Of a stretch of 32,000 nt of DNA, positions 5,770 to 32,000 are shown one piece after another. The notes under the pieces were generated by a model. The model was not told the origin of the DNA, did not search any database, and saw nothing but the letters and a program-made list of their open reading frames with translations. The DNA lies in NCBI RefSeq assembly GCF_018398935.1, contig NZ_CP074694.1, forward strand, positions 2,340,001-2,372,000. Direction: 5' to 3'. Source of the stretch: Telmatocola sphagniphila. Its GTDB lineage: Bacteria; Planctomycetota; Planctomycetia; Gemmatales; Gemmataceae. Made by a program: the position numbers and the translations under genes. Position 1 is the first letter of the stretch. Every line of letters begins with the position of its first letter.

Positions 5770-5806
5770 GTTCGCCTTTCGACTGAGATTTCTAATGATC
5801 CGCCCT

Positions 5807-13099: not shown

Positions 13100-13107
13100 T
13101 TCAGTGG

Positions 13108-13740
13108 TTACTCTTTGAAGACTTCCGGATGAGTGGCCAAGATTTCTTTCAGACGTTTTAGAGCTCGCATATATCGATTGCTGGCCGCGGCTTTTTGGAT
13201 GCCGAGAAGGTGGGCCGTCTCATTATTAGACAGTTCCTCGAAATGACGTAAAGTCAGGATTTCTCGATCCAAAGGGGGCATGAGATTCAGAGCTTCCTGC
13301 AAAAAGATCTGTCGCTCCAGACGGATGGCCGCGTGGGAGGGCGTCGATGTACTTCCGAGAACATCCGCGGCCAGAGACGCGGAACTCGCGGGAGGGAGCC
13401 CTGAATGGAGCGGAATTTCCTGCCCGGCATCCCGCATTTTTGCCCCTAGATGCTTCCTGTGCAAAGCCAGTAACCGCTGACCTGTCAAAAAGCGTAGCCA
13501 CAGGTAGGGCGGCATTGTCGGATTGCTCGCATACTGCGGCGCCCTTCGTACGACATCGACACAAGCCTCTTGCAATACATCGGAAGGATCGAGCCGACCT
13601 TGCAGTCGATGATCAAGACGCAGTCGAACCATTCGGCGGAGCCGAGAACGATAATATTCAAACAACTCGAGTGAGGCCCGGGGATCTCCCTCGAGGAGTC
13701 GACGCTTCAGAAGTTCAGAACCGGACCACACGACAGACAT
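13108..13740 (-). CDS. ECF-type RNA polymerase sigma-70 family factor (planctomycete subfamily-like)
   Basis: 210-aa ORF. Region-2-like DPSDVLQEACVDVVRR...YLWLRFLTGQRLLALHRKH. Region-4 HTH-like REILTLRHFEELSNNETAHLLGIQKAAASNRYMRALKRLKE. Its stop (13108-13110) is separated by only 8 nt from the kinase ATG (13099). Confidence 0.85.
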   Translation of the reverse strand: MSVVWSGSELLKRRLLEGDPRASLELFEYYRSRLRRMVRLRLDHRLQGRLDPSDVLQEACVDVVRRAPQYASNPTMPPYLWLRFLTGQRLLALHRKHLGAKMRDAGQEIPLHSGLPPASSASLAADVLGSTSTPSHAAIRLERQIFLQEALNLMPPLDREILTLRHFEELSNNETAHLLGIQKAAASNRYMRALKRLKEILATHPEVFKE

Positions 13741-14957: not shown

Positions 14958-17948
14958 ATGTTCCGATCAAGCGTCTTGTTCCTGTCGTTCCTCCTCAGTT
15001 GGGGGCTCCTCCAGTCTAGCCAAGATCCGCTTCTGTGGGCCGACGATAACAAAGAAAAAGCCGACGAAAAAGAGCTGAGCTTTAAAGATATTCTCCCACT
15101 ACTTCAAGCTAAGTGCGTTCGCTGTCACGGGGAGAAGATCCAAAAGGCGGAACTGGATTTGTCATCACCGACCAAAATCTTCCAGGGAGGCGAATCGGGC
15201 CCGGCAGTCGTTTCCCGGCAGCCGGACAAAAGTCCGCTCTTCGAAAAAGTGCATACGGGGGCGATGCCTCCGGCCAAGAATGAGCGACTTACAGCTGCAG
15301 AAGTCGAACTACTCCGACGCTGGATTTCTTCAGGGGCCAAGTCCGATTCTGAAAAAAATCGAGAAATCGCCAACGATCTCGCGGGCACACAGCATGAAGT
15401 CATTCCCATTTTACTTCGACACTGCATTGCCTGTCACGGTTCGCGTCGCCGGGAAGGCGGCTTAGATCTTCGTACCAAAGCGGCCATGCTCAAAGGGGGC
15501 AAGTCCGGTCCGGCGATTGTTCCGGGCAAGCCCGAGGAGAGTTTGCTTGTCAAGAAAATCCGAACGAGTCAAATGCCGCCGCGCGATCGGTTGCTCGAAG
15601 TCAGCTTAAAGCCGATTGAATCCTCTGAAACGGAAACTCTGGTCCGCTGGATCGCTGCTGGCGCGAACGAAAAAGTCGTTGAGCCGGATGTTGCGACAAC
15701 CACGCCGGATCCCCTGGTCGGAGAGAAAGACCGGAGCTTTTGGTCGTTTCAACCCCCTAAAAAGGTCGCAGTTCCCCAACCTGATCAAGCCGCTTTAGTC
15801 AAAAATCCCATCGATGCCTTTGTGCTACGAAAATTGGAATCCAAGGGACTGACGCTTTCGAAGGAAGCCGACCGGGCCACTCTGTTGCGGCGAGCGTCTT
15901 TCGATTTGACGGGATTGCCTCCCGAACCCGCCGAAGTTAAAGCTTTCCTGGCAGATACTTCAGCAGATGCCTATGAGAAACTCATCGATCGCCTCCTGGC
16001 CTCCCCCCGCTACGGAGAGAGGTGGGGTCGCTATTGGCTCGATCTGGCCGGCTATGCCGACTCCGAAGGCAAACGCGAGCAAGATCTCTTTCGACCACAC
16101 GCCTGGCGTTACCGCGATTACGTCATCCGCGCTTTCAACAACGATAAGCCTTATAATCGCTTCCTTTTAGAACAGCTGGCCGGCGATGAGCTGGTCGACT
16201 ACGAGCATGCCGCAGTTATAACGCCCGAGATGGCGGACAACTTAGTGGCAACCGGTTTTTTGCGGATGGCCCCCGATGGAAGTTGGGCCAACATTACCGG
16301 TTTTATTCCGGATCGTCTGGAGGTGATCGCCGACGAGATGGATATTCTCGGCTCCGGCCTGATGGGTCTGACGATGAAATGCGCCCGCTGCCACAGCCAC
16401 AAATTCGATCCGATTCCGCAGCGCGATTACTATCGATTGGTAGATATTTTCAAAGGTGCCTACGATGAATACGATTGGCTGCGGCCGGACATTCGACCCG
16501 GAATAGGTCCCGTCAGCGAAGATCGGCAAGGCGGCCGTCACCTACCTTATGTCTCGACGGAAGAACGAAAGAACTGGGAAGCGACCAACGCGCAGCTTCG
16601 TAAAGAAATCGAAGATCTTAAAACTTCACTAGAACGGAAGACGGCGACCCTAGCGGCGAAGTTCTTAGAAGAACGACTCAATCAGCTGCCTGAAGTCCTG
16701 CGTGCCGACCTTCGGAAAATGGTGGCCACACCACCGGCCCAGCGCGATAGCGTTCAAATTTATCTGGCCGGAAAATTCGAGAAGCAACTGAAGCTCGATC
16801 GCAATGCCCTGAAAAGCGTAGACGCAGCATTCAAGAAAGAAGTTGAAGCAATTGAAGCTCAATTAGGTACGCTGAGAGCAGGCATAAGACCAGAACAGCG
16901 AATTCAAGCACTTTGGGATCGGGGTATACCTTCGCCGACTTACGTTTATCGACGCGGCGATCCGCTTAACACGGGCCGTCTTGTCGGACCGGGCGTCCCC
17001 TCAGTGCTAACCGATGGTAAGACCCCCTTTGTCGTCACGGCTCCCTGGCTGGGAGCGAACAAGACTGGCCGACGACTGGCTTTTGCTCACTGGCTCACGG
17101 AATCCGAACATCCTTTGACGGCCCGGGTGGCGGTGAATCGACTTTGGAAACATCACTTCGGAGTCGGGATTGTCGCCTCGCTGGGCAACTTCGGCAAAAC
17201 GGGAACTTTGCCCACTCATCCCGAATTACTCGATTGGCTCGCTCGCGAGTTCGTGCAAACCGGATGGAGCATGAAAGCCATGCATCGGCTAATGATGACA
17301 AGCGCCACGTATCGGCAAAGTTCCCATCTCTCTCCAAAATTAATCGAACTCGATCCCGACAACCAACTTTACTCTCGGATGCCGCTCCGACGCATGGATG
17401 CCGAATCCCTCTACGATACGCTTCTGCTTTTGGCGGGCCGACTGGACGAAACCCGCTTCGGCCCCGCCGATCCTGTGCAATCCCGGGCTGATGGCTTGGT
17501 GATTCCTACCGGTACCTCCAAAGGCTGGCGACGCATGATTTACGTGCAGCAACTCCGCAAGCAGATGATTTCGCATCTGGAGAACTTCGATTTCCCGCAA
17601 ATGAACCCGAATTGTCTCGAGCGTCGCGATTCGACGGTCGCGCCGCAAGCTTTACATCTGTTGAATGATGGCATGGTGGAACAACTAGCGCAGCAGTTCG
17701 CGGCACGAGTAGCTCGGGAAGCCGGCGGAGATGCCCAAAAGCAAGTCGAGCATATTTATTTGGTCGCTATCAGTCGCCTCCCGAGCCAAGAAGAAATGAA
17801 ACTCGGCGTCGAGGCTCTGCATCAATTGGCCGAAGAGTGGAGCAAATCTGCCAAAAGCAACAAGAGCCCCGAAGATTGCCAGTCGCAAGCTTTAAAGACC
17901 TACTGCCATGCAATTATGAACTCCGCCGGCTTTCTCTATCTCGATTAA
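14958..17948 (+). CDS. PSCyt (planctomycete cytochrome c) / DUF1549 / DUF1553 family protein
   Basis: 996-aa ORF with a signal peptide. Two CxxCH heme-binding motifs: CVRCH at 15114-15128 and CIACH at 15423-15437. [11 protein letters not shown] motif from 16380. C-terminal NRLWKHHFG motif. This architecture is remembered from planctomycete and verrucomicrobial genomes. Confidence 0.85.
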
Positions 17949-18028
17949 TATCGGCTCCAGACACAATCTGGATTGCCAAATGAGCATTGACGGCTGCCGG
18001 TAAGGGCGAATACTTCAGAGAGCAAACG

Positions 18029-19501
18029 ATGTCGAAATTTATCGATTCAGATTTTGCAAGCGCTGCTCGCCTGACGCGCCGGGGAATGTTTCAAAGTGTT
18101 TCCGGTGGCCTGTGCGGCGCCGCCCTGAGCTATCTCGTGGGAGATACGCTAACAGGGAGCGCCCAGCTTTTGGCGTCCGAGAAGCCCGGCGACCTGAAAC
18201 CCCGTCCACCCCATTTTGCTCCCAAGGCGAAGTCGGTCATTCACCTCTTCATGAACGGCGGCCCGAGTCAGATGGATCTGTTCGATCCGAAACCGGAGCT
18301 CGATAAACATCACGGTCAGGCCTATGCGGATCGGATCGCGGGAGAAATCGAGTTCCTCAAAGATGCCGGCTCTTTGATGCGCAGCCCCTTCAAATTTGCG
18401 AAACATGGTCAGTGCGGTGCCTGGGTTTCCGAAGCGATGCCGCATTTGGCCGGTGTGGTCGATGAAGTCGCTTTTATTCGCTCCATGTTCACTACCAATC
18501 TCACGCATGAACCGGCCGTTTACCTGATTCAAACAGGCAAAATGGGCCCCGGCCGACCCACTCTTGGCTCCTGGGTCGTCTATGGTTTAGGGAGCGAAAA
18601 TCAAAATATGCCGGCGTATATCGTACTGGATGACCCCCGCGGTCTACCGGTCAACGGCGTCGAGAATTGGCAAGCGGGATTCCTGCCACCGATGTTTCAG
18701 GGGACGCGATTTCGATCCACGGGTTCGCCGGTTTTAAATTTGAATCCGGAGAAGGAGCGGCCCAAAACGGTTGCAAATGCAGAAAGAGATTTGTTGGCAA
18801 AACTCGACCAGCTGCACAAGACCGAACGACCGGGACAACCGGTCCTCGATGCCCGAATTGCGAGTTACGAATTGGCTGCTCGGATGCAATTAGAGGCTAC
18901 CGACGCTCTCGATATTTCCAAGGAACCTCAATCAATTCGGGATATGTACGGCATCGGCCGCGAGCCGACCGACTCCTATGGTCGACGCTGTCTGATTGCC
19001 CGTCGATTGGTGGAACGCGGCGTCCGATTCGTACAACTCTACATCAATCAGCAGATCTGGGACAACCACACTTCACTCGCGAGTGAACTGAAATCCGCAT
19101 GCAATCGAACCGATCAGCCGACGGCGGCCTTGCTTCGCGATCTGAAACAACGGGGACTGTTTGATTCGACTCTAGTTGTATGGGGTGGCGAATTCGGACG
19201 CTTGCCGATAGCGCAATTACCTCCGGACAAAAACGAACGACAAGCCGGCCGCGATCACAACAAGAATGCGTTCTGTACCTGGATGGCCGGTGCCGGGATC
19301 AAAGGCGGCACCAGCTACGGTAAAACGGATGAACTCGGAATGGCTGCGGTCGAAAACCGGGTGAGCGTCGGGGATTGGCACGCCACCATTCTGCACCTGC
19401 TCGGCATGCACTACGATCAGCTTTTTTATGAACAAAACGGATTGAAAGAGAAACTCACTGGGGTTGAAGAGGCCCACGTGGTTAAAGGAATATTGTCCTA
19501 A
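18029..19501 (+). CDS. DUF1501 family (sulfatase/alkaline-phosphatase-fold-like) protein with Tat-type signal
   Basis: The track ORF starts at TTG 17987. I prefer ATG 18029 (MSKFIDSDFASAARLTRRGMFQSVSG, twin-arginine motif). Family-typical motifs: HLFMNGGPSQMDLFDPKP, WDNH, GGEFGR, GRDHN. It lies 80 nt downstream of its usual DUF1549/DUF1553 partner. Confidence 0.85.
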   Translation: MSKFIDSDFASAARLTRRGMFQSVSGGLCGAALSYLVGDTLTGSAQLLASEKPGDLKPRPPHFAPKAKSVIHLFMNGGPSQMDLFDPKPELDKHHGQAYADRIAGEIEFLKDAGSLMRSPFKFAKHGQCGAWVSEAMPHLAGVVDEVAFIRSMFTTNLTHEPAVYLIQTGKMGPGRPTLGSWVVYGLGSENQNMPAYIVLDDPRGLPVNGVENWQAGFLPPMFQGTRFRSTGSPVLNLNPEKERPKTVANAERDLLAKLDQLHKTERPGQPVLDARIASYELAARMQLEATDALDISKEPQSIRDMYGIGREPTDSYGRRCLIARRLVERGVRFVQLYINQQIWDNHTSLASELKSACNRTDQPTAALLRDLKQRGLFDSTLVVWGGEFGRLPIAQLPPDKNERQAGRDHNKNAFCTWMAGAGIKGGTSYGKTDELGMAAVENRVSVGDWHATILHLLGMHYDQLFYEQNGLKEKLTGVEEAHVVKGILS

Positions 19502-21193: not shown

Positions 21194-21898
21194 GTGACAG
21201 ATGATTATTGGTCAAATTTTAAAGATCCTGATCCGATGCTAGCTTTCCTTCGGCACAAAGCGAGTGATCGCAAGTTTCGGCTTTTTGCTATCGCATGTTG
21301 GCGAAGAATCCTCGATCTTATACCAGATGTTAGAAGCAGAGTTGTTATTGAAATTGCCGAAGGCCTAATTGGAGGAAAATTTAATGAACGCGAACTGGTT
21401 CTTGCGAGGTTCAATGCTCAGGATGTTTTTGATCCTAATGTGAAAGGCGTTAATTTTGTTCAAGAAATTAATGGAGAAATCCGAGATGCTGCGATGGCGG
21501 CACACTGTTTGTCACTCTATGATTTTGTTTCGCTTGATGGAGAACCTTGTAGTCAAAGCGGACTAAACGTTGCTTATGGCACAGCGGATTTAGCTGCCAA
21601 AGCTGCATCTCGATCAAGAACATTTTCTGTAGAACGACAGGCTCAAAGTCAACTGATCCGCGACATCCCCGGTAATCCCTTCCGTCCCGCAACCCTCGAT
21701 CATCGCTGGCAGTCCACCAGTGTCCGTGACCTTGCCCTCTCCATCTACGACAACCGATCCTTCGACCAAATGCCCATCTTGGCCGATGCCTTGGAGGATT
21801 CCGGCTGCAATAATCGGGAGATAATCCAGCACTGTCGCGGTGATGGCCCTCATGTCAAAGGTTGTTGGGTAGTCGAACTCATTCTCGGGAAGGAGTGA
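21194..21898 (+). CDS. Hypothetical protein, paralog A of a tandem pair (variable N-region + conserved 81-aa Cys/His C-terminal module)
   Basis: 234-aa ORF with a GTG start at 21194 (GGAG 7 nt upstream). The start is supported by alignment with paralog B: MTDDYWSNFKDPDPMLAFL vs MTEEEWINSPDWQPLIQYL. N-terminal motif ASDRKFRLFAIACWRRI. C-terminal GNPFRPATLDHRWQS...MPILADALEDSGCNNREIIQHCRGDGPHVKGCWVVELILGKE. I remember this family from Gemmata-type and myxobacterial genomes; its function is unknown. Confidence 0.8.
   Translation: MTDDYWSNFKDPDPMLAFLRHKASDRKFRLFAIACWRRILDLIPDVRSRVVIEIAEGLIGGKFNERELVLARFNAQDVFDPNVKGVNFVQEINGEIRDAAMAAHCLSLYDFVSLDGEPCSQSGLNVAYGTADLAAKAASRSRTFSVERQAQSQLIRDIPGNPFRPATLDHRWQSTSVRDLALSIYDNRSFDQMPILADALEDSGCNNREIIQHCRGDGPHVKGCWVVELILGKE
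21653..21898 (+). repeat. Conserved GC-rich C-terminal module, copy 1 (pairs with 22412-22657)
   Basis: 81 codons + stop. 60/81 residues are identical to copy 2 by hand alignment. Line 21661-21720 is about 63 percent GC, against about 35 percent in the N-terminal part of the same gene. Confidence 0.85.
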
Positions 21899-21901
21899 TC
21901 A

Positions 21902-22657
21902 ATGACGGAGGAAGAATGGATAAATTCGCCCGATTGGCAGCCATTGATTCAATATTTATCCGGATCCCCGCATTTCAGGGAACGAAAGGTGAATCTCTAT
22001 ATTTGCGCAGGTCTTCGTGTTAACTGGAATCTACTTTACAGTAACTTTTCACGTGAGGCTGTAGAAGTAGCGGAGCGGGCAGCCGATGGCCGAGCCACCG
22101 AGAAAGAGATACATGACACACAATGGGCTGCAGAATGTCCGACTTTCGGCTTTGACTTCGATCCAGAATTTATCAGAAATCACAGTTATAATAAATCGAA
22201 CAACACTGAAGTGAAACGCTTAATAGAAATGGGGGTGTTCAAGGAAGAGGATATTCAAGGCAATAATCCACTAGGCGAAAAAAAAATAGTTGATCAACTT
22301 TCCAATTTAGCTCATATAGCCTATCACCTTCCTTATGAATCTAAGAACAACAATTTTTCTGACCATCTTTTAGATCATCTGCAACGCCAAGAAGAATGGC
22401 CGGGTGACTGGCTGGTTCGAGAAATCTTCGGTAATCCCTTCCACCCTGTAACTTTCGACCCTCGCTGGCAAACCACCACCGTCACGGACCTCGCCCGCAG
22501 CATTTATGCCACTCGTGGCTTCGACCAAATGCCCATCCTGGCCGATGCCCTCGAAGACGCTGGCTGCGATAACCAAGAGATCTTGACCCATTGTCGCGGC
22601 GACGGCTCTCATGTCAAGGGTTGCTGGGTCGTGGACCTCATTCTGGGAAAGGAGTAA
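21902..22657 (+). CDS. Hypothetical protein, paralog B of the tandem pair
   Basis: 251-aa ORF. Its ATG is 3 nt after the paralog A stop, with AAGGAG 6 nt upstream. C-terminal GNPFHPVTFDPRWQT...MPILADALEDAGCDNQEILTHCRGDGSHVKGCWVVDLILGKE. Confidence 0.8.
   Translation: MTEEEWINSPDWQPLIQYLSGSPHFRERKVNLYICAGLRVNWNLLYSNFSREAVEVAERAADGRATEKEIHDTQWAAECPTFGFDFDPEFIRNHSYNKSNNTEVKRLIEMGVFKEEDIQGNNPLGEKKIVDQLSNLAHIAYHLPYESKNNNFSDHLLDHLQRQEEWPGDWLVREIFGNPFHPVTFDPRWQTTTVTDLARSIYATRGFDQMPILADALEDAGCDNQEILTHCRGDGSHVKGCWVVDLILGKE
22412..22657 (+). repeat. Conserved GC-rich C-terminal module, copy 2
   Basis: See copy 1. Both copies end ...GCWVV[ED]LILGKE-stop. Confidence 0.85.
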
Positions 22658-22964: not shown

Positions 22965-24509
22965 CTATTTGGCTCCTTCTTCCAGAAGGGGAGCAACCGA
23001 ATTACCCAGCGCCCGGTTCAGTCGGAATTCCGCCCGGTTGTATTCGGCCAGCGAAGCATGATAATCGACGATGGCCTGGCTCATGGCTTGGATCGCCGCC
23101 ACCACTTCCTGAGGACGGATGATCAGCACCAGCAAGTTACCCACTCGTTTGGTTTGCGGCAGTCCTTCGAAGTTCTTCTCCAAGTTTCGCTTGGCTTCGA
23201 TGTAGGCGGGGATGGCCACATCCAGCCGAGTACGAGCCGCGTTCACGGAGGCGTAAGCTTGCGACACATCGGCGGCCACTTGATCTTGTGCCCGCAACAG
23301 GGTCAGCACGGCCACTTCATTTTCAGATCGTCTCTGCCGAATTTTGGCCCGGTTGCCAAATCCCAAGTTCTGCAGTTCCCAGACCAGCTGAAAGTCATAA
23401 TCGACACGGCTGCCGAAATCGCTGTTGCTGTAGCTGCCGCCACCAAAGCTTCCGATTCCCAGGGTTCCCGGAGGAGAAGTGGAAGCCGGTCTTGCGAGAA
23501 CTATCGGCATCAATGGGCGGGTTCGTTCCTGTCTTAAACGCTCGACCGATGCTCTCACCAAGGCAGATTGTGAAGCCAGTTCGGGACGATGCATTAAGGC
23601 TATTTGAATCAGTTCTTTCAAAGGCAAATTGGGATCCACCACTTGAAGGCGAAAATCGATAGCTTCTTTCAAAGCCAGCGATTCGCCGGGAGGAAGCCTC
23701 AAAATTCGGACCAGCTCGGCCATGGCGATGTAATACTGCCCTTCGGTATTAGCGACAGTCTGTTTGCGTCGCGCCAGTTCGACTTTGGCACGGTTGATTT
23801 CGACATCGGGCACCAGACCTTCCGCCATCGCGGAAACCTGGCGAACCAATTCTTCCGCCTGAGCAACCAGGACTTTTTGTGCGGCCAATTCGTATTGGTA
23901 CTGCAGCACCTGGAAGTAAATCTCACACACCTCCAGCGACACATCGTTGTTAACAGCCTGCTTATCGGAGTATCGAGATTCCAAAACGTTGCGGGCAGCG
24001 CGGGGCGCAAATACCGCATCATTGGTGGCCACCACGGCTACGAAACCGACACCATACATCAGGGTTTCCCGAGTGTTAGTCTCAATCGCTCCGGTGGAGA
24101 TGTTCGAGAAAGGGCCGGAATGGTAATAGTAGTCCGCTCCGACGTCGATGTTCGGCAACCAGAGCGCTCGAGCTCCCTGGTACAGCGCACTGGCCACGCC
24201 GATCTGGGCATCCGCCACCCGGTTGTCGATCGCCTGACTATTAGCGATGAGAATCGCCTCTCTCAGCGTGATCGGCTGCCCTCCGGATTTTGGAGGGGTC
24301 GATCCCGACATCGTGAGCGATTCATCGGCTTTGAATTTGGAGGGGAAAGAAAGCTCTTTCTTTTGGTCTCCGGTTGGAAGGGGTGTTGGATTCTTCTGAT
24401 CCGGCACTTTCGGAAGGGGCAAAATGGGGCTGGGTTCCTGAGCTTGTCCCGTCATGGAATAAAGGCATAAAACTGCCGGCAAACAAAAAGCTATATGCCG
24501 ATACCGCAT
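22965..24509 (-). CDS. TolC-like outer membrane efflux protein (OEP family)
   Basis: Track ORF is 22965..24602. I prefer ATG 24509 (MRYRHIAFCLPAVLCLYSMTGQAQ signal peptide, GGGAGA SD). A Pro-rich linker is followed by two OEP-type repeats: LTLREAILIANSQAIDNRVADAQIGVASALYQGARALWLPNIDVGADYYY and LKELIQIALMHRPELASQSALVRASVERLRQERTRPLMP. It is divergent from the RND genes. Confidence 0.85.
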   Translation of the reverse strand: MRYRHIAFCLPAVLCLYSMTGQAQEPSPILPLPKVPDQKNPTPLPTGDQKKELSFPSKFKADESLTMSGSTPPKSGGQPITLREAILIANSQAIDNRVADAQIGVASALYQGARALWLPNIDVGADYYYHSGPFSNISTGAIETNTRETLMYGVGFVAVVATNDAVFAPRAARNVLESRYSDKQAVNNDVSLEVCEIYFQVLQYQYELAAQKVLVAQAEELVRQVSAMAEGLVPDVEINRAKVELARRKQTVANTEGQYYIAMAELVRILRLPPGESLALKEAIDFRLQVVDPNLPLKELIQIALMHRPELASQSALVRASVERLRQERTRPLMPIVLARPASTSPPGTLGIGSFGGGSYSNSDFGSRVDYDFQLVWELQNLGFGNRAKIRQRRSENEVAVLTLLRAQDQVAADVSQAYASVNAARTRLDVAIPAYIEAKRNLEKNFEGLPQTKRVGNLLVLIIRPQEVVAAIQAMSQAIVDYHASLAEYNRAEFRLNRALGNSVAPLLEEGAK

Positions 24510-24792
24510 TGTGAGTCTCCCGAACTTCCTGTTCTGGCAAACAAAATTGTGTCTGTTCGTGGTATCGGTAACGATTATTCTCCGGATGAGGTTTGGTTCC
24601 AATCTTCCGAAAACAATTCGCCAATTATGCGTCGTGTGCGGATTGTACGGAGTGGCCCTTTCTCATAAATACTTTGATCGCTTACACACAATCTGAATTG
24701 CGAGGAAACATACCCACATTTTCACTCTCGGAATTCGAAAAAAACCAATTTGTAGTGAACAAAATCCACAAAAATCGCGATTCTCTTACAGG

Positions 24793-25021: not shown

Positions 25022-28000
25022 ATGAAGGCACTCGATTTAGCATTCAGACATCCCGTCGCCGTGATGGTCGCGATGCTGGGTATTGCTTTTGCCAGTTTGT
25101 TCGCGGTCTCTCGCATGCGAACCGATGTTTTCCCCGATCTCAACCTTCCCGTGATTTACGTCGCCCAGCCCTATGGGGGCATGGATCCCGCCCAGATGGA
25201 AGGTCTGATTTCCAGCTATTACGAATATGCCTTCCTCTACATGAATGGCATCGACCACGTCGAATCCCGCAACATTCAGAACCTGGCCTTACTAAAGCTC
25301 TATTTTCACCCGGGTACCAACATGGCTCAGGCCATGGCAGAAGCCGGGATTTATGCCAATCGAGCCAAAGCCTATTTTCCTCCGGGTACCGTTACGCCTT
25401 TCATTATCCGTTTGGACGCTTCCAGTGTCCCCGTGGCGTATTTGACACTCTCCAGTGAGTCGCGCGCGATCAAGGAACTTTCGGACTTAATGCTCTTCCG
25501 GTTGCGGCCGATTCTGGCCAGTCTACCTGGAGCTTCCGCACCGCAACCGTTCGGCGGTAGTTTGAGAAGCATCATCGTAAGTCTCGATCCGGAACGATTG
25601 CGAGCGTACAACCTATCTCCTCAAGACGTAGCCAGCGCGCTCAGCAACGGCAACATCATCACCCCATCCGGTAACGCCCGCATCAAAGATCAGATGCCGA
25701 TCGTTTCGGTGAATTCGATCGTGGTCGATCCGCAGGATTTGGGAAATATTCCCATCAAGGTGGAGGAACACGTTTATCTCCGCGACTTGCTGAAGGGCAA
25801 AATCGAGGATGGTATGGACATACCATCCGGCTGGGCTCTGGTGAATGGTCGCCGAGCGGTTTACATGCCGATCCTCAAAACCGGGGATGCCTCGACATTG
25901 ACCGTAGTGAATGAACTCAAAGAAAATCTGGCTCAGATGCAGTCGGTACTCCCCGAGGACGTCAAACTTTCTCTCGAATTCGATCAATCCCCTTATGTGA
26001 CCGGGGCCGTCAGCGGCGTCGTCGAAGAATCTGCCCTGGGTGCCCTGTTAACCGGTTTAATGGTACTTCTGTTTCTGCGGGATTGGCGGAGTGTCATCGT
26101 CGTCGTTTTGACGATTCCCTTGGCTCTGATGGGCGCGGTCGTAGGGCTTTGGGCAACCGGCCAGACGATTAACCTGATGACGCTCGGCGGCTTATCCCTG
26201 GCCGTGGGAATTCTGGTTGATGAAGGTACGGTCGTCATCGAGAATATCCATTCTCAAATGGAAATCCAGCCCACTACGGCCCGAGCCATTCTAGTCGGGA
26301 CTTCGGAAACAATGGTTCCGAATATGCTGGCCATGCTCTGCATTCTCGCCGTTTTCTTACCCTCGTTTTTGATGGAAGGAGCGGCGCGCGGACTCTTTGT
26401 TCCGCTGGCCATTTCCGTTGGCTTCGCGATGATCACCGCCTTTGCGCTTTCCATCACCTTTGTACCGGTTCTCTCCGTTTGGCTTCTGAAGCACATCGAG
26501 GTGGATGAACATCAAGTACACGGGACCTTCTCCTTCGAAACATTCCGACTCTTCTATGCCCGAACGGTCGGGAGAATTTTACCTCGAAGAAAATTCATCG
26601 TACCAATCTACCTGGTCATTATGGCGAGTTTGCTGGTACTATTCGGAAGCCAGGTCGGACGAGAAATTGCGCCGCAGGTGGACTCCGGCCAATTTCAAAT
26701 GCGCATTAAAGCTCCTACCGGAACGCGACTCGAACTCACTGAAGAGTTGACTCGGGAATCGCTGGAAGTCATCAAGGACGTCGTTGGCGAAGAAAACCTG
26801 GCTATCTCGGTGGCGTATGTCGGCACAACCGCACCAACTTACACCGCTAATGCAATCTACTTGTGGACCAGCGGAACCGATCAGGCCGTGGTTCGAGTGG
26901 CATTGAAAAAAGATAGCGGTCTGCGAGTCGAAGCGATCAAAGAACGCTTGAGAACGGAATTGAATGACCGCCTGAGTGGTTGGCTCAAAAACCGACTAAT
27001 CCAATACGGCATATCCCCCGAACTCGCGGACCAGCGAATTACCCAGCTGAAATTCTCCTTCGAACCGGCCGATGTGGTGAATCAAGTGATGAGCTTTGGG
27101 GCTTCAACGCCCATTGAAGTTGCCGTGAGCGGTCCGTTCCAAACCGAAAATCGACAGTACGCCGAAAAGGTCGCCGCTAAGCTGAGTGAGATTACCTCTT
27201 TGCGAGACCTTCAATTCGTTCAGGCTAACGACTACCCGCGTATTAAAGTGGAAGTCGATCGAGAGCGGGCAGGTCTGGCGGGATTGACGGTGTCTGAAGC
27301 GGCCTCATCGCTGATCGCCGCCACCTATTCCAGCCGTTACGCGAACGTCGTTTTCTGGGCCGATCCCACTAGCGGCATCGGCTATCAGGTCCAGGTACAA
27401 GTTCCTCCTGCCCGAATGAATTCAATGGCAGAAGTGGGTGAAATTCCTGTAAAATCAACGGATGAAGGCGGCTTGGTTCTACTTCGAGACGTTGCACGTA
27501 TCGAAAAAGGGACGATGCCTGAGGAATACGACCGTATTAATCAGAAGCGTATGGTTACTCTCACGGCCAACGTGGTGGGAGAAGATCTCGGTCGGGCCGC
27601 GGATAAGATTGCCGAAGCCATTAAAGAAGCAGGAGATGCGCCGCGCGGTGCTAAGATCGAGGTTCGCGGTCAAGTGCCTCCCATGCTGCAAATGTTCAGC
27701 GGGCTGGCCACAGGTCTGGGCTTGGCCGTGATCGTGGTTTTCTTGATGCTAACCGCTTATTTTCAATCGCTGCGGCTTGCGCTCGTATCGGTCGCTACAA
27801 CGCCAGCGGTTGTTGCGGGGGTTTCGATCGCCCTGTATTCGACCGGGACCACTCTCAACATTGAATCCTTCATGGGTGCCATCATGGCCATCGGCGTTGC
27901 TGTGGCTAACGCGATTCTCCTCGTGACTTTTGCCGAGCGGGATCGGCAGGCGGGAGTGGGTTCTTCGGAAGCCGCCAGAACCGGTGCGGAGGAACGACTC

Positions 28001-28324
28001 CGGCCGATTTTGATGACGAGTTGTGCGATGATTGCGGGGATGGTTCCCATGGCCCTGGGGATGGGAGAAGGTGGCGAGCAAACTGCTCCCCTGGGTCGAG
28101 CTGTGATTGGGGGCCTGCTCTTCGCCACTTTCACAACGCTTCTGGTACTACCGGCGGTCTTCGCCATCGTCATGCACAAATGCCCGATTGGATCTTCCTC
28201 GCTGGATCCCGATGATCCGGAGAGTAAGTTTTTCCTAACTCGACGCCTCAAACAGGCAAAAGCAAAATTGACGGCTCGGAAGCCTACTAAACAAAAAAAA
28301 CCGGCAGTTAGCACTACTCACTAA
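25022..28324 (+). CDS. RND efflux transporter permease subunit, copy 1 (TM4 acidic pair intact, basic C-terminal tail)
   Basis: The track ORF starts at TTG 24992. I prefer ATG 25022 because it aligns with the copy 2 start (MKALDLAFRHPVAVMVAM vs MKPIEIAMRSPMAIMVAM). It has the 12-TM AcrB-like layout with two large periplasmic loops. The TM4 segment LSLAVGILVDEGTVVIENIH and the TM11 segment RLRPILMTS align by eye with AcrB. Confidence 0.9.
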   Translation: MKALDLAFRHPVAVMVAMLGIAFASLFAVSRMRTDVFPDLNLPVIYVAQPYGGMDPAQMEGLISSYYEYAFLYMNGIDHVESRNIQNLALLKLYFHPGTNMAQAMAEAGIYANRAKAYFPPGTVTPFIIRLDASSVPVAYLTLSSESRAIKELSDLMLFRLRPILASLPGASAPQPFGGSLRSIIVSLDPERLRAYNLSPQDVASALSNGNIITPSGNARIKDQMPIVSVNSIVVDPQDLGNIPIKVEEHVYLRDLLKGKIEDGMDIPSGWALVNGRRAVYMPILKTGDASTLTVVNELKENLAQMQSVLPEDVKLSLEFDQSPYVTGAVSGVVEESALGALLTGLMVLLFLRDWRSVIVVVLTIPLALMGAVVGLWATGQTINLMTLGGLSLAVGILVDEGTVVIENIHSQMEIQPTTARAILVGTSETMVPNMLAMLCILAVFLPSFLMEGAARGLFVPLAISVGFAMITAFALSITFVPVLSVWLLKHIEVDEHQVHGTFSFETFRLFYARTVGRILPRRKFIVPIYLVIMASLLVLFGSQVGREIAPQVDSGQFQMRIKAPTGTRLELTEELTRESLEVIKDVVGEENLAISVAYVGTTAPTYTANAIYLWTSGTDQAVVRVALKKDSGLRVEAIKERLRTELNDRLSGWLKNRLIQYGISPELADQRITQLKFSFEPADVVNQVMSFGASTPIEVAVSGPFQTENRQYAEKVAAKLSEITSLRDLQFVQANDYPRIKVEVDRERAGLAGLTVSEAASSLIAATYSSRYANVVFWADPTSGIGYQVQVQVPPARMNSMAEVGEIPVKSTDEGGLVLLRDVARIEKGTMPEEYDRINQKRMVTLTANVVGEDLGRAADKIAEAIKEAGDAPRGAKIEVRGQVPPMLQMFSGLATGLGLAVIVVFLMLTAYFQSLRLALVSVATTPAVVAGVSIALYSTGTTLNIESFMGAIMAIGVAVANAILLVTFAERDRQAGVGSSEAARTGAEERLRPILMTSCAMIAGMVPMALGMGEGGEQTAPLGRAVIGGLLFATFTTLLVLPAVFAIVMHKCPIGSSSLDPDDPESKFFLTRRLKQAKAKLTARKPTKQKKPAVSTTH

Positions 28325-28466
28325 ATTTGGATTCCCGCTGATAAGCAGCTGCTGGAAACTATTTTTTTCACGGATTCCCTGATAGTAAGTAAGCCCGAAG
28401 TGGATTAGGTAATTTTTCGATGCCGAACGCCAGCGACGAATACAGGGATGGGATTGAGGTAGCAGA

Positions 28467-31400
28467 ATGAAACCGATTGAAATCGCCATGCGCAGTCCCA
28501 TGGCCATCATGGTCGCGATGGTATCCATTATCTTCGGAAGTGTCTTTGCCGTTACGCGCATGCGGATCGATGTTTTCCCCGATCTTAACCTTCCCGTGAT
28601 TTATGTGGCTCAACCTTACGGCGGCATGGATCCCGCCCAAATGGAAGGTCTGATCTCGAGCTACTACGAGTACGCCTTTCTTTACATGAACGGCATCGAT
28701 CACGTCGAATCGCGGAATATCCAGAACCTCGCTCTGATCAAAATCTACTTCCACCCGGGCACGGACATGGCTCAAGCCATGGCCGAGGCGGGAATTTATG
28801 CCAACCGTGCCAAAGCCTTCTTCCCGCCCGGGACCGTGACCCCATTTATCATTCGGCTGGATGCTTCGAGCGTACCCGTCGCTTACCTGACACTGTCCAG
28901 CGAAACCCGGGAAATCAAAGAACTTTCCGACCTGATGCTGTTCCGGTTGCGACCCATTCTCGCCAGTCTTCCCGGGGCCTCGGCTCCTCAGCCGTTCGGC
29001 GGAAGTCTGCGCAGTATCATCGTGAGCCTCGATCCGGAGAGATTGCGAGCCTACAACCTCTCCCCTCAAGATGTGGCCACGGCGCTTTCCAAAGGGAACA
29101 CGATTACTCCGTCCGGTAACGCCCGCATCAAAGACCAGATGCCGATCGTCTCCGTGAATTCCATCGTGGTCGACCCGCAGGATTTGGGAAACATTCCGAT
29201 CAAGCCCGAAGTTCACGTTTACCTGCGGGATTTGTTGAAGGGAAAAATCGAAGACGGTATGGACATCGCTTCGGGATGGGCTCTGGTGAATGGACGTCGG
29301 GCCGTGTACATGCCGATCTTAAAAACCGGCGACTCTTCCACTTTGAGCGTTGTGAATGAGATCAAAGAAAACCTGGAACAGATGCAGTCGGTGTTGCCCA
29401 AGGATGTGAAGCTGACTCTCGAATTCGATCAATCCCCTGCCGTTACCAATGGCGTCAAAGGCGTTCTTGCGCAATCTAGTCTGGGTGCTTTATTGACCGG
29501 GCTAATCATCTTGCTGTTCCTGAGAGACTGGCGAAGCGTTGTCGTAGTCGTACTCACCATTCCGCTGGCTTTGATGGGAGCAGTCGTTGGTCTATTCGCC
29601 ACCGGGCAAACTATCAACCTGATGACACTCGGGGGACTGTCGCTCGCCGTCGGTATCTTGGTGAGTTCCGCCACGGTTGTGGTTGAGAACATTCATACTC
29701 GGATGGCCTACTCGGAGTCCATCGCCGAGGCGGCCAAAGATGGTACCCAAGAGACTCTCGTTCCCGCCTTGCTCGCATTGCTCTGCATCCTGGCCGTATT
29801 TTTGCCTTCGTTCTTGATGGAAGGTGCGGCCCGCGGTTTGTTCGTTCCGTTAGCAATCGCGGTAGGTTTCGCCATGATCACGGCCTTTGGGCTTTCAGTC
29901 ACATTCGTTCCCGTGCTTTCAGTCTGGGTTATGAAGCTAATTCCGGAGAATCCCAATTCGAAGTCAGGTCGATTTTCGTTCGCCCGTCTGCGGAGCTTCT
30001 ACGAAGGGTTGGTCGGTAGGTTCCTGAACATTCGAAGATTAATGATTCCGACCTACCTTTTAATCAGTTTGGCTCTCATTGCCGTGGTGGGATCGCAGGT
30101 GGGTCGGGAAATTGCGCCTCAAGTCGATGCCGGTCAATTTCAAATGCGTATTTCCGCTCCGACCGGAACCCGACTGGAAATCACCGAGGATCTGACCCGG
30201 CAGGCGCTCGAGGTGATCAAAGCGAAAATCGGTGAAGATAATATTGCGATTTCCGTTTCTTATATCGGGACGACCGCACCCACATTCACGGCCAACGCCG
30301 TGTATCTTTGGACCGCCGGTACCGATCAGGCGGTGGTCCGAATTTCCTTAAGACCCGAGGCGGGTCTTCGAGTGGAGGATGTCGAAGAAATATTACGAAA
30401 AGAATTGAGCGAAAAGCTAATCGGCTGGTTGTCGAATAAACTCGTAGATGCGGGGGTTACACGAGAAGTGGCCATCCAACGGGCCGGCCGTTTGACGTTT
30501 TCTTTCGAACCGGCTGACGTGGTTAACCAGGTTATGAGCTTCGGCGCAGCGACTCCCCTCGAAATCTCCGTCAGTGGACCTTACCAGGCAGAAAACCGGG
30601 CTTATGCGGAGAAAGTCGCCGCAAAGTTGAGTGAGATTTCCACTTTGCGGGATCTCCGCTTCGTTCAAGCCAATGACTACCCGCGTATCAAAGTGGAAGT
30701 CGATCGGGAACGTGCCGGATTGGCTGGCCTTACCGTTTCGGAAGCGGCTTCCTCACTGATCGCCGCCACCTATTCCAGTCGCTATGCTACAGTGGTGTTT
30801 TGGGCGGATCCAAATAGCGGTATCGGTTACCAGGTCCAGGTTCAGGTGCCTCCCGCCCGAATGAACTCGATGTCCGAAGTCGGCGAAATTCCTGTGAAAG
30901 CCACCTCTCAAGGGGGATCGGTTTTACTGAGAGACGTTGCTCGCATCGAAACTGGAACGATGCCGGAAGAATACGATCGTATTAATCAGAAGCGCATGGT
31001 CACAATCACGGCCAACGTCGTGGGTGATGATCTGGGACGAGCCGCAGATAAAATCGCCGAAGCTATTAAAGAAGTGGGCGAACCTCCCCGTGGAGCACGT
31101 ATTGAAATCGGCGGCCAGGTTCCCGCGATGAAATTGATGTTTAGCGGCCTCGCCTTCGGTTTGGTTCTCGCCATCGGCGTGGTGTTTCTGCTCTTAACCG
31201 CTTACTTCCAGTCGATACGCCTTGCTATCGTCTCGCTCGCCTCAACGCCAGCGGTAGTCGCAGGAGTCGCGCTCACTTTGTATCTGACGCACACGACGCT
31301 GAATATCGAATCGTTCATGGGAGCAATCATGGCGGTTGGCGTCTCGGTGGCGAATGCGATCCTTTTCGTGACTTTCGCGGAACGGGAAAGACAAGCCGGT

Positions 31401-31859
31401 TTGGGTGCTGCCCAGGCAGCAAAGACCGGCGCGGCGGATCGTTTCCGAGCTATACTGATGATGAGTTGCGCGATGATCGCCGGGATGATTCCCATGGCAT
31501 TGGGTATGGGAGAAGGGGGAGAACAAACCGCTCCGCTGGGTCGAGCGGTAGTCGGCGGGTTGGTCTTCACCACTTTCACCACCTTGCTGATACTGCCTTC
31601 CATTTTTGCCTTGGTAATGGGTAAGAGTGCAATCGGTTCTTCTTCTCTGCACCCCGATGATCCCGATAGCAAGTATTTCTCGCACGAAGCAATGCCGGTC
31701 GGTGCGCATACCCCGGCCGTACATCAATCGGCCGTGGAAGTTATTGATGACTCGATATTCCCGCCCGAGGGAACTGACGAATCTGCTGATTCCAATCCCA
31801 ATTCGTCGCCCTTAGATGAACGAAAAACTGATTCTGAAACCGATAAGCCTAAGGAGTAA
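28467..31859 (+). CDS. RND efflux transporter permease subunit, copy 2 (TM4 acidic pair replaced by Ser-Ser, acidic C-terminal tail)
   Basis: 1130-aa ORF with GAGG 7 nt upstream. It is collinear with copy 1, about 93 percent identical over aa 33-332 (hand count) and lower in the second periplasmic loop. TM4 reads LSLAVGILVSSATVVVENIH and TM11 reads RFRAILMMS. Confidence 0.9.
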   Translation: MKPIEIAMRSPMAIMVAMVSIIFGSVFAVTRMRIDVFPDLNLPVIYVAQPYGGMDPAQMEGLISSYYEYAFLYMNGIDHVESRNIQNLALIKIYFHPGTDMAQAMAEAGIYANRAKAFFPPGTVTPFIIRLDASSVPVAYLTLSSETREIKELSDLMLFRLRPILASLPGASAPQPFGGSLRSIIVSLDPERLRAYNLSPQDVATALSKGNTITPSGNARIKDQMPIVSVNSIVVDPQDLGNIPIKPEVHVYLRDLLKGKIEDGMDIASGWALVNGRRAVYMPILKTGDSSTLSVVNEIKENLEQMQSVLPKDVKLTLEFDQSPAVTNGVKGVLAQSSLGALLTGLIILLFLRDWRSVVVVVLTIPLALMGAVVGLFATGQTINLMTLGGLSLAVGILVSSATVVVENIHTRMAYSESIAEAAKDGTQETLVPALLALLCILAVFLPSFLMEGAARGLFVPLAIAVGFAMITAFGLSVTFVPVLSVWVMKLIPENPNSKSGRFSFARLRSFYEGLVGRFLNIRRLMIPTYLLISLALIAVVGSQVGREIAPQVDAGQFQMRISAPTGTRLEITEDLTRQALEVIKAKIGEDNIAISVSYIGTTAPTFTANAVYLWTAGTDQAVVRISLRPEAGLRVEDVEEILRKELSEKLIGWLSNKLVDAGVTREVAIQRAGRLTFSFEPADVVNQVMSFGAATPLEISVSGPYQAENRAYAEKVAAKLSEISTLRDLRFVQANDYPRIKVEVDRERAGLAGLTVSEAASSLIAATYSSRYATVVFWADPNSGIGYQVQVQVPPARMNSMSEVGEIPVKATSQGGSVLLRDVARIETGTMPEEYDRINQKRMVTITANVVGDDLGRAADKIAEAIKEVGEPPRGARIEIGGQVPAMKLMFSGLAFGLVLAIGVVFLLLTAYFQSIRLAIVSLASTPAVVAGVALTLYLTHTTLNIESFMGAIMAVGVSVANAILFVTFAERERQAGLGAAQAAKTGAADRFRAILMMSCAMIAGMIPMALGMGEGGEQTAPLGRAVVGGLVFTTFTTLLILPSIFALVMGKSAIGSSSLHPDDPDSKYFSHEAMPVGAHTPAVHQSAVEVIDDSIFPPEGTDESADSNPNSSPLDERKTDSETDKPKE

Positions 31860-31861
31860 TT

Positions 31862-32000
31862 ATGGACGTTCTCACAGAACCAAAATCTGGGAATGGCGCC
31901 CACTTGGGCGCGAAATTTGTCTGGATCCTTCTCGCCACTTTGCCAATCCTCAGCAGCGGCTGCGGTAAGAAAGTCGCCGCTAAGGCGATCGTAGAGATTC
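31862..32000 (+). CDS. Probable lipoprotein, first 46 codons only. Its position suggests the periplasmic adaptor (MFP) of the RND pump.
   Basis: The ATG at 31862 is 2 nt after the RND2 stop, with AAGGAG at 31851-31856. Translation: MDVLTEPKSGNGAHLGAKFVWILLATLPILSSGCGKKVAAKAIVEI. It has a hydrophobic h-region and a lipobox-like LSSGC. It is not in the ORF track because it runs off the window end. The adaptor identity is inferred from context only. Confidence 0.45.
   Translation, partial: MDVLTEPKSGNGAHLGAKFVWILLATLPILSSGCGKKVAAKAIVEI

Follow-up and report, generated by a model that had tools for sequence, protein, structure and literature searches.

A tandem RND permease of the planctomycete Telmatocola sphagniphila has lost transmembrane helix 4 acidic residues that its canonical twin retains

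We analyzed a 32-kb stretch of the genome of Telmatocola sphagniphila (Gemmataceae, Planctomycetota), referred to below as the window, that carries a resistance-nodulation-division (RND) efflux operon with two adjacent permease genes. The first permease (copy 1) has the residues typical of its family, whereas the second (copy 2) has lost the acidic residues in the middle of transmembrane helix 4 (TM4) that align with the proton relay of AcrB. In our preferred reading, to which we assign a probability of roughly 0.57, copy 2 is the relay-less partner in a two-permease tripartite system and co-assembles with copy 1 into a heterotrimer. The operon runs in the order outer membrane factor (OMF; minus strand, divergent), copy 1, copy 2, and the start of a lipoprotein adaptor, with the following features.

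22965-24602, minus strand: OMF, TolC-like gene (Pfam OEP PF02321, E 1.9e-22; TolC/NodT NCBIfam matches weak)
25022-28324, plus strand: RND permease copy 1 (RND1), with canonical Glu336, Asp400-Glu401, Pro995, and Thr999 (ACR_tran full length, E 3e-176)
26219-26224, plus strand: copy 1 codons 400-401, GAT GAA (Asp-Glu), equivalent to AcrB D407/D408
28325-28466, plus strand: inter-permease spacer, 142 nucleotides (nt)
28467-31859, plus strand: RND permease copy 2 (RND2), 1130 amino acids (aa), relay-altered, WP_213499082.1 (ACR_tran full length, E 3e-169)
29472-29474, plus strand: copy 2 codon 336, CAA (Gln), against Glu in copy 1 and canonical relatives; periplasmic end of TM2
29664-29672, plus strand: copy 2 codons 400-402, AGT TCC GCC (Ser-Ser-Ala), replacing Asp-Glu-Gly; AcrB D407/D408 positions, mid-TM4
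29700-29729, plus strand: copy 2 post-TM4 cytoplasmic segment, with Gln412 to Arg (29700-29702) and Arg421 to Glu (29727-29729)
31449-31463, plus strand: copy 2 TM11 segment, with Pro995 to Ala (31449-31451, AcrB P974) and Thr999 to Met (ATG 31461-31463, AcrB T978)
31650-31652, plus strand: copy 2 codon 1062, CAC (His), against Asp in copy 1; cytoplasmic tail beyond TM12
31862-32000, plus strand: start of the adaptor (membrane-fusion protein, MFP) lipoprotein gene, cut by the window end; ATG 31862, translation MDVLTEPKSGNGAHLGAKFVWILLATLPILSSGCGKK with an LSSGC lipobox

AcrB numbering was assigned from three alignments (phmmer against solved structures, MAFFT with the Escherichia coli K-12 proteins AcrB, MdtB, and MdtC, and the Pfam profile), all of which place Ser400-Ser401 of copy 2 on AcrB D407/D408. 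In the HMMER alignment, copy 2 GILVSSATVVVENI falls on GIVVDDAIVVVENV of MtrD and GIIVDGAIVVMENI of ZneA, and MAFFT gives the equivalences S400=D407, S401=D408, A962=K940, R992=R971, A995=P974, and M999=T978. Where copy 2 has Ser400, Ser401, and Met999, copy 1 has Asp400, Glu401, and Thr999 (ACG 28016-28018). The Arg at the R971 position, Arg992, is shared by both copies and all relatives, and copy 2 also retains Arg994 in TM11 (AcrB R973) as well as Glu407 (AcrB E414) and Asn408. The K940 position is Ala962 in both copies, an alanine that is invariant in the aligned close family. These assignments agree with an initial annotation made from the DNA letters, whose codon positions and identities for both copies (400-401 and 999) are all correct; its placement of the two segments in TM4 and TM11 is borne out by HMMER, MAFFT, and the predicted TM4 helix described below, and MAFFT likewise upholds its statements that the R971-equivalent Arg is kept and that both copies have Ala at the K940 position. 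The same annotation spoke of a lost acidic pair. Both residues have indeed changed, but only Asp400 is invariant in canonical members, position 401 being Glu, Met, or Asp.

The altered positions belong to a well-described part of AcrB. There, as described by Eicher et al. 2014, T978 donates a hydrogen bond to D407, and toward the cytoplasm R971 forms a pair with E414/N415. E346, in TM2 at its periplasmic end, borders a chain of water molecules along which protons are proposed to reach D407/D408 (PMC4359379). A membrane-embedded TM4 carboxylate is needed by all characterized RND permeases (summarized in PMC10924465). Position 336 aligns three residues N-terminal to the AcrB E346 column, that is, one helical turn off, and Glu336 of the family would be the equivalent of E346. 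The initial annotation had named the TM4 pair and the TM11 Thr as the altered set; these changes are confirmed, but the set was incomplete, as copy 2 has also lost Glu336, Pro995, and Arg421. When the TM helices of copy 2 were checked against those of copy 1, no new acidic residue was found in any of them. Copy 2 is most likely unable to power a transport cycle by itself, because it would have no membrane-embedded protonatable residue.

In other respects copy 2 looks like a complete permease. All of its periplasmic domains are kept, and its ACR_tran (PF00873) score of 565 bits is close to the 588 bits of copy 1 (cut-off 28), both spanning profile positions 2-1020 of 1021. Its AlphaFold model has a mean predicted local distance difference test score of 77 and helices at the expected TM positions, including a continuous TM4 at residues 385-413 with S400/S401 in mid-helix, a TM2 that begins at residue 329, and a TM11 at residues 993-1012. 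Foldseek TM-scores of this model against BpeF, CusA, AcrD, OqxB, and AdeB are 0.79-0.87. The reading frame is open across 1130 codons, and the NCBI annotation is that of an intact permease.

The two copies share 79% protein identity, gap-free over 1071 residues, and about 20-25% identity with MdtB, MdtC, or AcrB, which places the duplication within the planctomycete family. Their comparison gives a nonsynonymous divergence (dN) of 0.156, a saturated synonymous divergence (dS) of about 2.9, and a dN/dS ratio (omega) of 0.05; among second-copy orthologues omega is 0.08-0.13. Nucleotide identity of the copies is 72% and no identical DNA tracts are left, and a recent duplication or recent gene conversion in Telmatocola is ruled out by this absence together with the saturated synonymous sites. 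The replacements of Asp and Glu by Ser cost two and three base changes, respectively, and so are not a sequencing slip, and an independently assembled Logan fragment (P0136) matches copy 2 exactly over residues 721-1017, including the RFRAILMM motif of TM11. The suggestion in the initial annotation that the changes were targeted rather than a sign of decay thus holds up, as judged by the low omega and by the inclusion, among the differences between the copies, of residues that are in mutual contact in AcrB. These data show copy 2 to be, by all predictions from its sequence, a folded RND permease under strong purifying selection and not a decaying one.

The genes around the permeases complete a tripartite system, with an OEP gene and a lipoprotein open reading frame (ORF) at the MFP position both adjacent in the window. 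Copy 1 is the same sequence as the NCBI Telmatocola sphagniphila protein P0001 (1100 aa), and its start is ATG 25022 rather than the TTG 24992 of the mechanical ORF call, as this ATG aligns with the starts of copy 2 and of homologues. A consensus scan of the 142-nt spacer found no promoter-like or terminator-like site, and an AAGGAG sequence at 31851-31856 lies 5 nt before the adaptor ATG 31862. The arrangement of two adjacent paralogous permease genes with one adaptor occurs in the window and in nine further verified loci. In these related loci the two permease genes adjoin, with spacing from a 41-nt overlap up to 141 nt, and are followed by a single adaptor gene; all related pairs have the MFP gene 3' of their second permease gene. 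An OMF gene often lies alongside, with a divergent or adjacent OEP gene also in L082, L083, L170, and L171.

We typed position 400 in the best 120 homologues from a 5.8-billion-protein database. Asp occupies this position in 102 and is absent from 18, plus one Tyr form, and the Asp400-less types comprise six Asn-Thr, twelve Glu399-Gly-Thr, and one Tyr-Glu. A profile search from 20 altered copies returned the same close clade of ~67 clusters, with no further Ser-Ser or otherwise altered members among the matches listed, so the homologue sample is near-complete for that database. Asp400 is also present in 55/55 outgroup homologues. Genome and metagenome scans with copy 2 recovered at least 160 loci, nearly all of them distant single-copy relatives, which we used as controls. 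Among the matches listed, all 79 genome and all about 79 metagenome single-copy loci carry Asp400, and these scans contributed only L001 and L090 as pairs. Asp400 is likewise present in the single-copy loci L172 (the nearest outgroup of the Telmatocola pair) and L175.

Exactly one Asp400-less copy is found in each of the 10/10 verified tandem pairs (the window, L001, L081, L082/083, L084, L086, L087, L170, L171, and L174), and the residue in place of Asp400 is Ser, Asn, Tyr, or else Gly next to a shifted Glu. For the link between tandem pairing and the absence of Asp400, Fisher p is about 1.5e-17, a value that counts P0012/P0040 as an eleventh pair with adjacency unverified and that ignores kinship. 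Across these loci, loss of Asp400 goes strictly together with tandem pairing, and strong comparative evidence argues for both relay loss and obligate pairing. The proposal in the initial annotation that orthologous loci might conserve a dichotomy of Asp-Glu and Ser-Ser copies is thus supported insofar as every pair has one Asp400-less copy and no single-copy locus does; the Ser-Ser state itself, however, is seen only in Telmatocola, other lineages having Asn-Thr, Glu-Gly-Thr, or Tyr-Glu. All told, paralogs from at least four lineages besides Telmatocola have a change at this site. Nor is the altered copy always the second gene, as had been supposed: in L170 (7691-14363, from a peat metagenome) the altered permease (Tyr400-Glu401, with RFRS in TM11) comes first and the canonical one second, their ORFs overlapping by 41 nt, which is the reverse of the gene order in every other pair. 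The RND neighbors in L038, L120, L152, L160, and L168 were considered as tandem duplicates and rejected, as they are only 21-35% identical and all keep Asp.

The largest altered group is the Glu-Gly-Thr lineage, which includes the second genes of L084, L086, L087, L174, and L001 and the proteins P0022-P0057. Its altered copies read GI(I/L)EGTAIV, with Asp400 replaced by Gly and a Glu one residue earlier, and their partners have Asp-Met. Each subunit of such a pair therefore has a single TM4 carboxylate, at a different helical position in the two copies.

Asp400 does not change by itself. We compared sites between paired copies (the first six pairs) and across the wider clade, with 20 Asp400-less proteins, and obtained the following pattern.

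Site 336: canonical Glu (55/55 outgroup, every tabulated canonical group); altered Gln in copy 2, in 6/6 Asn-Thr types, and in P0039 and P0051
Site 400: canonical Asp; altered Ser, Asn, Gly, or Tyr
Site 401: canonical Glu, Met, or Asp; altered Thr or Ser in 19/20
Site 421: canonical Arg; altered Gln or Glu in 6/6 second copies of the first six pairs
Site 995: canonical Pro; altered Ala or Ser in 19/20, Pro being lost in 6/6 second copies of the first six pairs
Site 999: canonical Thr; altered Ala or Met in about half

Glu-Gly-Thr types have Gln or Leu at site 336 in 9/11 cases, and the proteins without Thr999 are copy 2, all Asn-Thr types, P0034, and P0039. Gln412 has become Arg, His, Lys, or Tyr in 5/6 second copies. 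Site 1062 changes from Asp to His in 6/6 second copies of the first six pairs, yet L170 has His in its two copies and L171 has Asp in its two. The sites altered together in Asp400-less copies (336, 400, 401, 421, 995, and 999) map to one network in AcrB. Charged residues are replaced by the polar uncharged residues Asn, Ser, Thr, and Gln, of which Asn and Gln are classic mimics of protonation, and this choice suggests that charge was removed while packing was preserved.

The divergence between the Telmatocola copies is unevenly spread over the subdomains, with fractional identities as follows.

DN 0.94; PN1 0.93; DC 0.92; PN2 0.91
PC2 0.78; TM bundles about 0.78; PC1 0.69; TM1 0.53; Iα-TM7 segment 0.42

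Identity is highest in DN, DC, and PN1, so the docking and pore parts that make trimer contacts are nearly interchangeable between the copies. PC1 and PC2, which form the substrate-entry cleft in AcrB, are the most divergent periplasmic parts. In the Glu-Gly-Thr lineage, altered copies outpace their partners only in the TM domains (0.77 versus 0.91 in TM2-6 and 0.80 versus 0.88 in TM8-12), and the periplasmic domains evolve at equal rates in altered and canonical copies. The two Telmatocola proteins also differ in their C-terminal tails: that of copy 1 (28220-28321) is Lys/Arg-rich with a net charge of +10 over 34 residues, and that of copy 2 (31680-31856) has 64 residues, is acidic and Ser/Pro-rich with a net charge of -10, and is disordered in the AlphaFold model. 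We considered these opposite charges as a signal of heteromer formation and rejected the idea, as none of the other nine pairs has this contrast.

How often Asp400 was lost depends on which part of the gene is compared. Whole-length distances cluster each pair by lineage, a grouping that would imply several separate duplications, each followed by loss of Asp400. The N-terminal 330 residues, however, are homogenized within genomes, and in the TM4-TM7 and TM10-C-terminal regions the Asn-Thr copies group away from their partners; the trees conflict because of gene conversion. Such conversion between paralogs is seen in L176 (314-4028), in which the second permease gene, of which only the N-terminus is visible, begins 17 nt after the canonical gene and matches it with 100% DNA identity over a tract at the 5' end. 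Loss of Asp400 is thus either convergent or an old state held against gene conversion, with a repeated or a single origin, respectively, and either way the altered state would have been selected. The Telmatocola pair groups together in both the TM4-TM7 and the TM10-C-terminal regions, and its nearest relatives, P0004 and L172, are single-copy.

One locus initially looked like a counterexample to obligate pairing. L173 (2880-6210) is an apparently stand-alone contig with an OMF, an Asn-Thr RND permease, and an MFP, and it comes from another sample of the L176 population. Its upstream 100 nt and the first ~840 nt of its permease gene match the canonical first gene of L176 at ~100% identity, whereas the remainder is of the Asn-Thr type. 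We rejected it as a counterexample because this hybrid sequence is that of a collapse chimera of a tandem pair, which would have arisen either in assembly or by unequal crossover; L173 may also be a real deletion variant.

Paired paralogous permease genes that share one operon and one adaptor are likewise known from MdtABC of E. coli, MuxABC-OpmB of Pseudomonas aeruginosa, and SmeJK of Stenotrophomonas maltophilia. The gene order is adaptor-B-C in Mdt and RND1-RND2-adaptor here, and the Mdt paralogs are about 50% identical and stem from one ancient proteobacterial duplication (PMC7015380, PMC10872679), whereas the pairs described here are 78-84% identical. The window proteins score 218-226 bits with NF007798 (MdtB/MuxB; cut-off 1584) and 253-268 bits with NF007905 (MdtC; cut-off 1774), far below membership, so the pair is placed by these profiles outside the MdtBC/MuxBC clade and has an independent origin. 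The initial annotation had likened the pair to MdtBC and MuxBC. The likeness is apt, since relay mutations abolish the activity of MdtB but are tolerated in MdtC (PMC4338810), although the window pair lies outside that clade. E. coli MdtB and MdtC both keep D407, D408, K940, R971, and T978, whereas copy 2 naturally lacks D407, D408, and T978. When 920 genomes were surveyed in 2024, the Mdt clade was the only one with tandem permease genes, and planctomycetes go unmentioned in that study (PMC10872679).

The best sequence match in the PDB is ZneA (E 2.4e-74). Pumps of the ZneA/CusA type have one essential Asp in TM4 and a nonacidic residue right after it, in which they resemble canonical members of the present family, and ZneA lacks the AcrB-type TM10 Lys, as those members do. 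The two copies are not members of the CusA/CzcA family TIGR00914, with 358 and 349 bits against a cut-off of 701, and the known heavy-metal efflux pumps ZneA and CusA are single-permease systems, unlike the two-permease system here. The nearest experimental parallels to copy 2 are the AcrB mutants D407N, D408N, and T978A, in which the same positions are neutralized; the Asn-Thr lineage carries a literal D407N. In the structure of AcrB D407N, the interface of the TM repeats is partly disengaged (PMC4359379). The AcrB relay mutants are engineered and inactive, whereas the neutralized protomer here is a natural, selected, and long-kept gene product. We found no account of a natural relay-less RND paralog in the open-access literature.

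Copy 2 is strongly selected and always accompanied by a canonical twin, one adaptor, and one OMF, and co-assembly of the two permeases is the most economical explanation. The proton pathway of copy 2 would be dismantled at TM4 (Asp400 and its neighbor), at TM11 (Thr and Pro), and at the periplasmic mouth by TM2 (Glu). Copy 1 protomers would supply the proton-driven conformational work and copy 2 would contribute a porter and docking module to the heterotrimer, so that copy 2 probably functions solely as a passenger alongside its canonical twin. The system would then be a natural counterpart of what engineered relay mutations showed in E. coli MdtB2C, in which substrates bind mainly to MdtC (PMC4338810, PMC10924465). 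Loss of proton coupling, hetero-oligomerization, its stoichiometry, and the identity of the substrate-binding subunit are what we infer from the comparisons above.

Several points weigh against this reading. Copy 2 retains Glu407 (the AcrB E414 equivalent) and His410, which could in principle carry a proton, and the AcrB K940 lysine is without a counterpart in either copy, so the coupling chemistry differs from that of AcrB. That Asp400 is essential in this family is suggested by its conservation only. The Ser-Ser state has no confirming orthologue beyond T. sphagniphila, and the Glu399 lineage may still be proton coupled, in which case "loss" would be "rewiring" in some members. The TM-specific acceleration of the Glu-Gly-Thr lineage is not seen in the single Asn-Thr comparison. 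In covalently fused AcrB trimers, one inactive protomer abolishes all activity (PMC5719797), and function of a mixed trimer is therefore not a given. Finally, as structure prediction covered single chains only, heterotrimer formation is something that we infer, if with good motivation.

We weighed three alternatives to a co-assembling passenger subunit. An autonomous copy 2 homotrimer, energized through a rewired site (Glu407/His410, or Glu399 elsewhere) or by an Na+-type ion, with hydroxyl or amide side chains as ion ligands in place of Asp-Glu, would account for several features of the family. The replacements are always polar (Ser-Ser, Asn-Thr, Gly-Thr with Glu399, or Tyr-Glu) and never hydrophobic, 19/20 altered copies have Thr or Ser at 401, Glu407 is invariant across altered copies, the family with its Ala at the K940 position is already off the AcrB network, and an Na+-dependent RND pump, VexF, has been reported (PMC10924465). 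We nevertheless regard such a pump as unlikely, because, with the L173 chimera accounted for, every altered copy has a canonical partner, copy 2 has gained no TM acidic residue, and, unexpectedly for a new and specific ion site, the replacement varies by lineage; the joint loss of the TM2 periplasmic Glu, the TM11 Thr, and the TM11 Pro resembles dismantling rather than rebuilding. It is quite improbable, too, that copy 2 is a nontransporting regulatory or structural pseudo-transporter whose inert homotrimers or poisoned mixed trimers titrate the adaptor and OMF or throttle the pump and its proton use. The fused AcrB result (PMC5719797) makes a relay-less subunit a possible brake, and the conserved periplasmic docking surfaces would permit competition for partners. 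However, a constitutively co-transcribed brake in its own operon is hard to rationalize, the porter-domain residues are as constrained in altered as in canonical copies, which favors substrate handling, and the arrangement has been kept across several lineages under purifying selection. The idea that copy 2 reflects a sequencing artifact, a lesion peculiar to this strain, or a duplicate in decay has in its favor that Ser-Ser is seen only in this genome, but it is effectively refuted by the intact 1130-codon frame, the omega of 0.05 at saturated dS, the multiple base changes behind each Ser, the recurrence of the TM11 changes in the independent Logan fragment, and the alteration of the same site in paralogs of other lineages.

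Some further features of the window and its relatives were recorded. Among the single-copy relatives, the proteins P0088, P0100, and P0115 and the loci L002, L003, and L014 (ORFs of 1545-1767 aa) combine ACR_tran with MFP (BSH/beta-barrel) Pfam domains, and these long relatives (1500-1770 aa) appear from their domain content to be fusions of a permease and an adaptor. At 8912-13740, some 11 kb upstream of the pump, lie an extracytoplasmic function (ECF) sigma factor gene and a gene for a giant Ser/Thr-kinase-WD40-tetratricopeptide repeat (TPR) protein. WD40-repeat and ECF sigma genes also flank the pump loci L171 (12688-18610) and L172 (7167-7697 and 14686-17916), which may reflect a recurring neighborhood or merely the abundance of such genes in planctomycete genomes. 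The other neighbors are as follows.

3382-5916, minus strand: 844-aa ORF of carboxypeptidase-regulatory-like repeats
5807-8605, minus strand: 932-aa ORF without a family match, overlapping the 844-aa ORF by 110 nt
14958-19501: PSCyt1/DUF1549/DUF1553 cytochrome-domain gene, typical of planctomycetes, followed by a DUF1501 gene; unrelated to the pump
21194-22657, plus strand: consecutive ORFs (234 and 251 aa) without a Pfam or NCBIfam match, between a beta-propeller-like gene and the OMF gene

Taken beyond the window, the data allow the tentative view, held at somewhat less than even odds, that a planctomycete RND clade evolved two-permease pumps with one obligately proton-uncoupled protomer type, either repeatedly or once and then held against gene conversion. 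At the same strength, the hallmarks of this protomer type would be the loss of the TM4 Asp, of the Thr that partners it in TM11, and of the Glu at the TM2 entrance. The case touches the question of whether an RND pump needs proton drive in each of its three protomers, on which the fused AcrB and MdtB2C results disagree. If the view is true, tripartite RND pumps can run on fewer than three energized protomers, and the strict three-stroke model of functional rotation, derived from AcrB, is not universal. A natural relay-less permease that always stands beside a canonical twin offers a clean model for separating energy transduction from substrate handling. The genetics are simple, with two genes whose products are 79% identical and a handful of residues that mark the altered copy across lineages. 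Tandem two-permease operons also extend beyond the proteobacterial Mdt clade, contrary to the 920-genome survey, and the annotation "Efflux RND transporter permease subunit" can mask subunits that are probably unable to pump alone.

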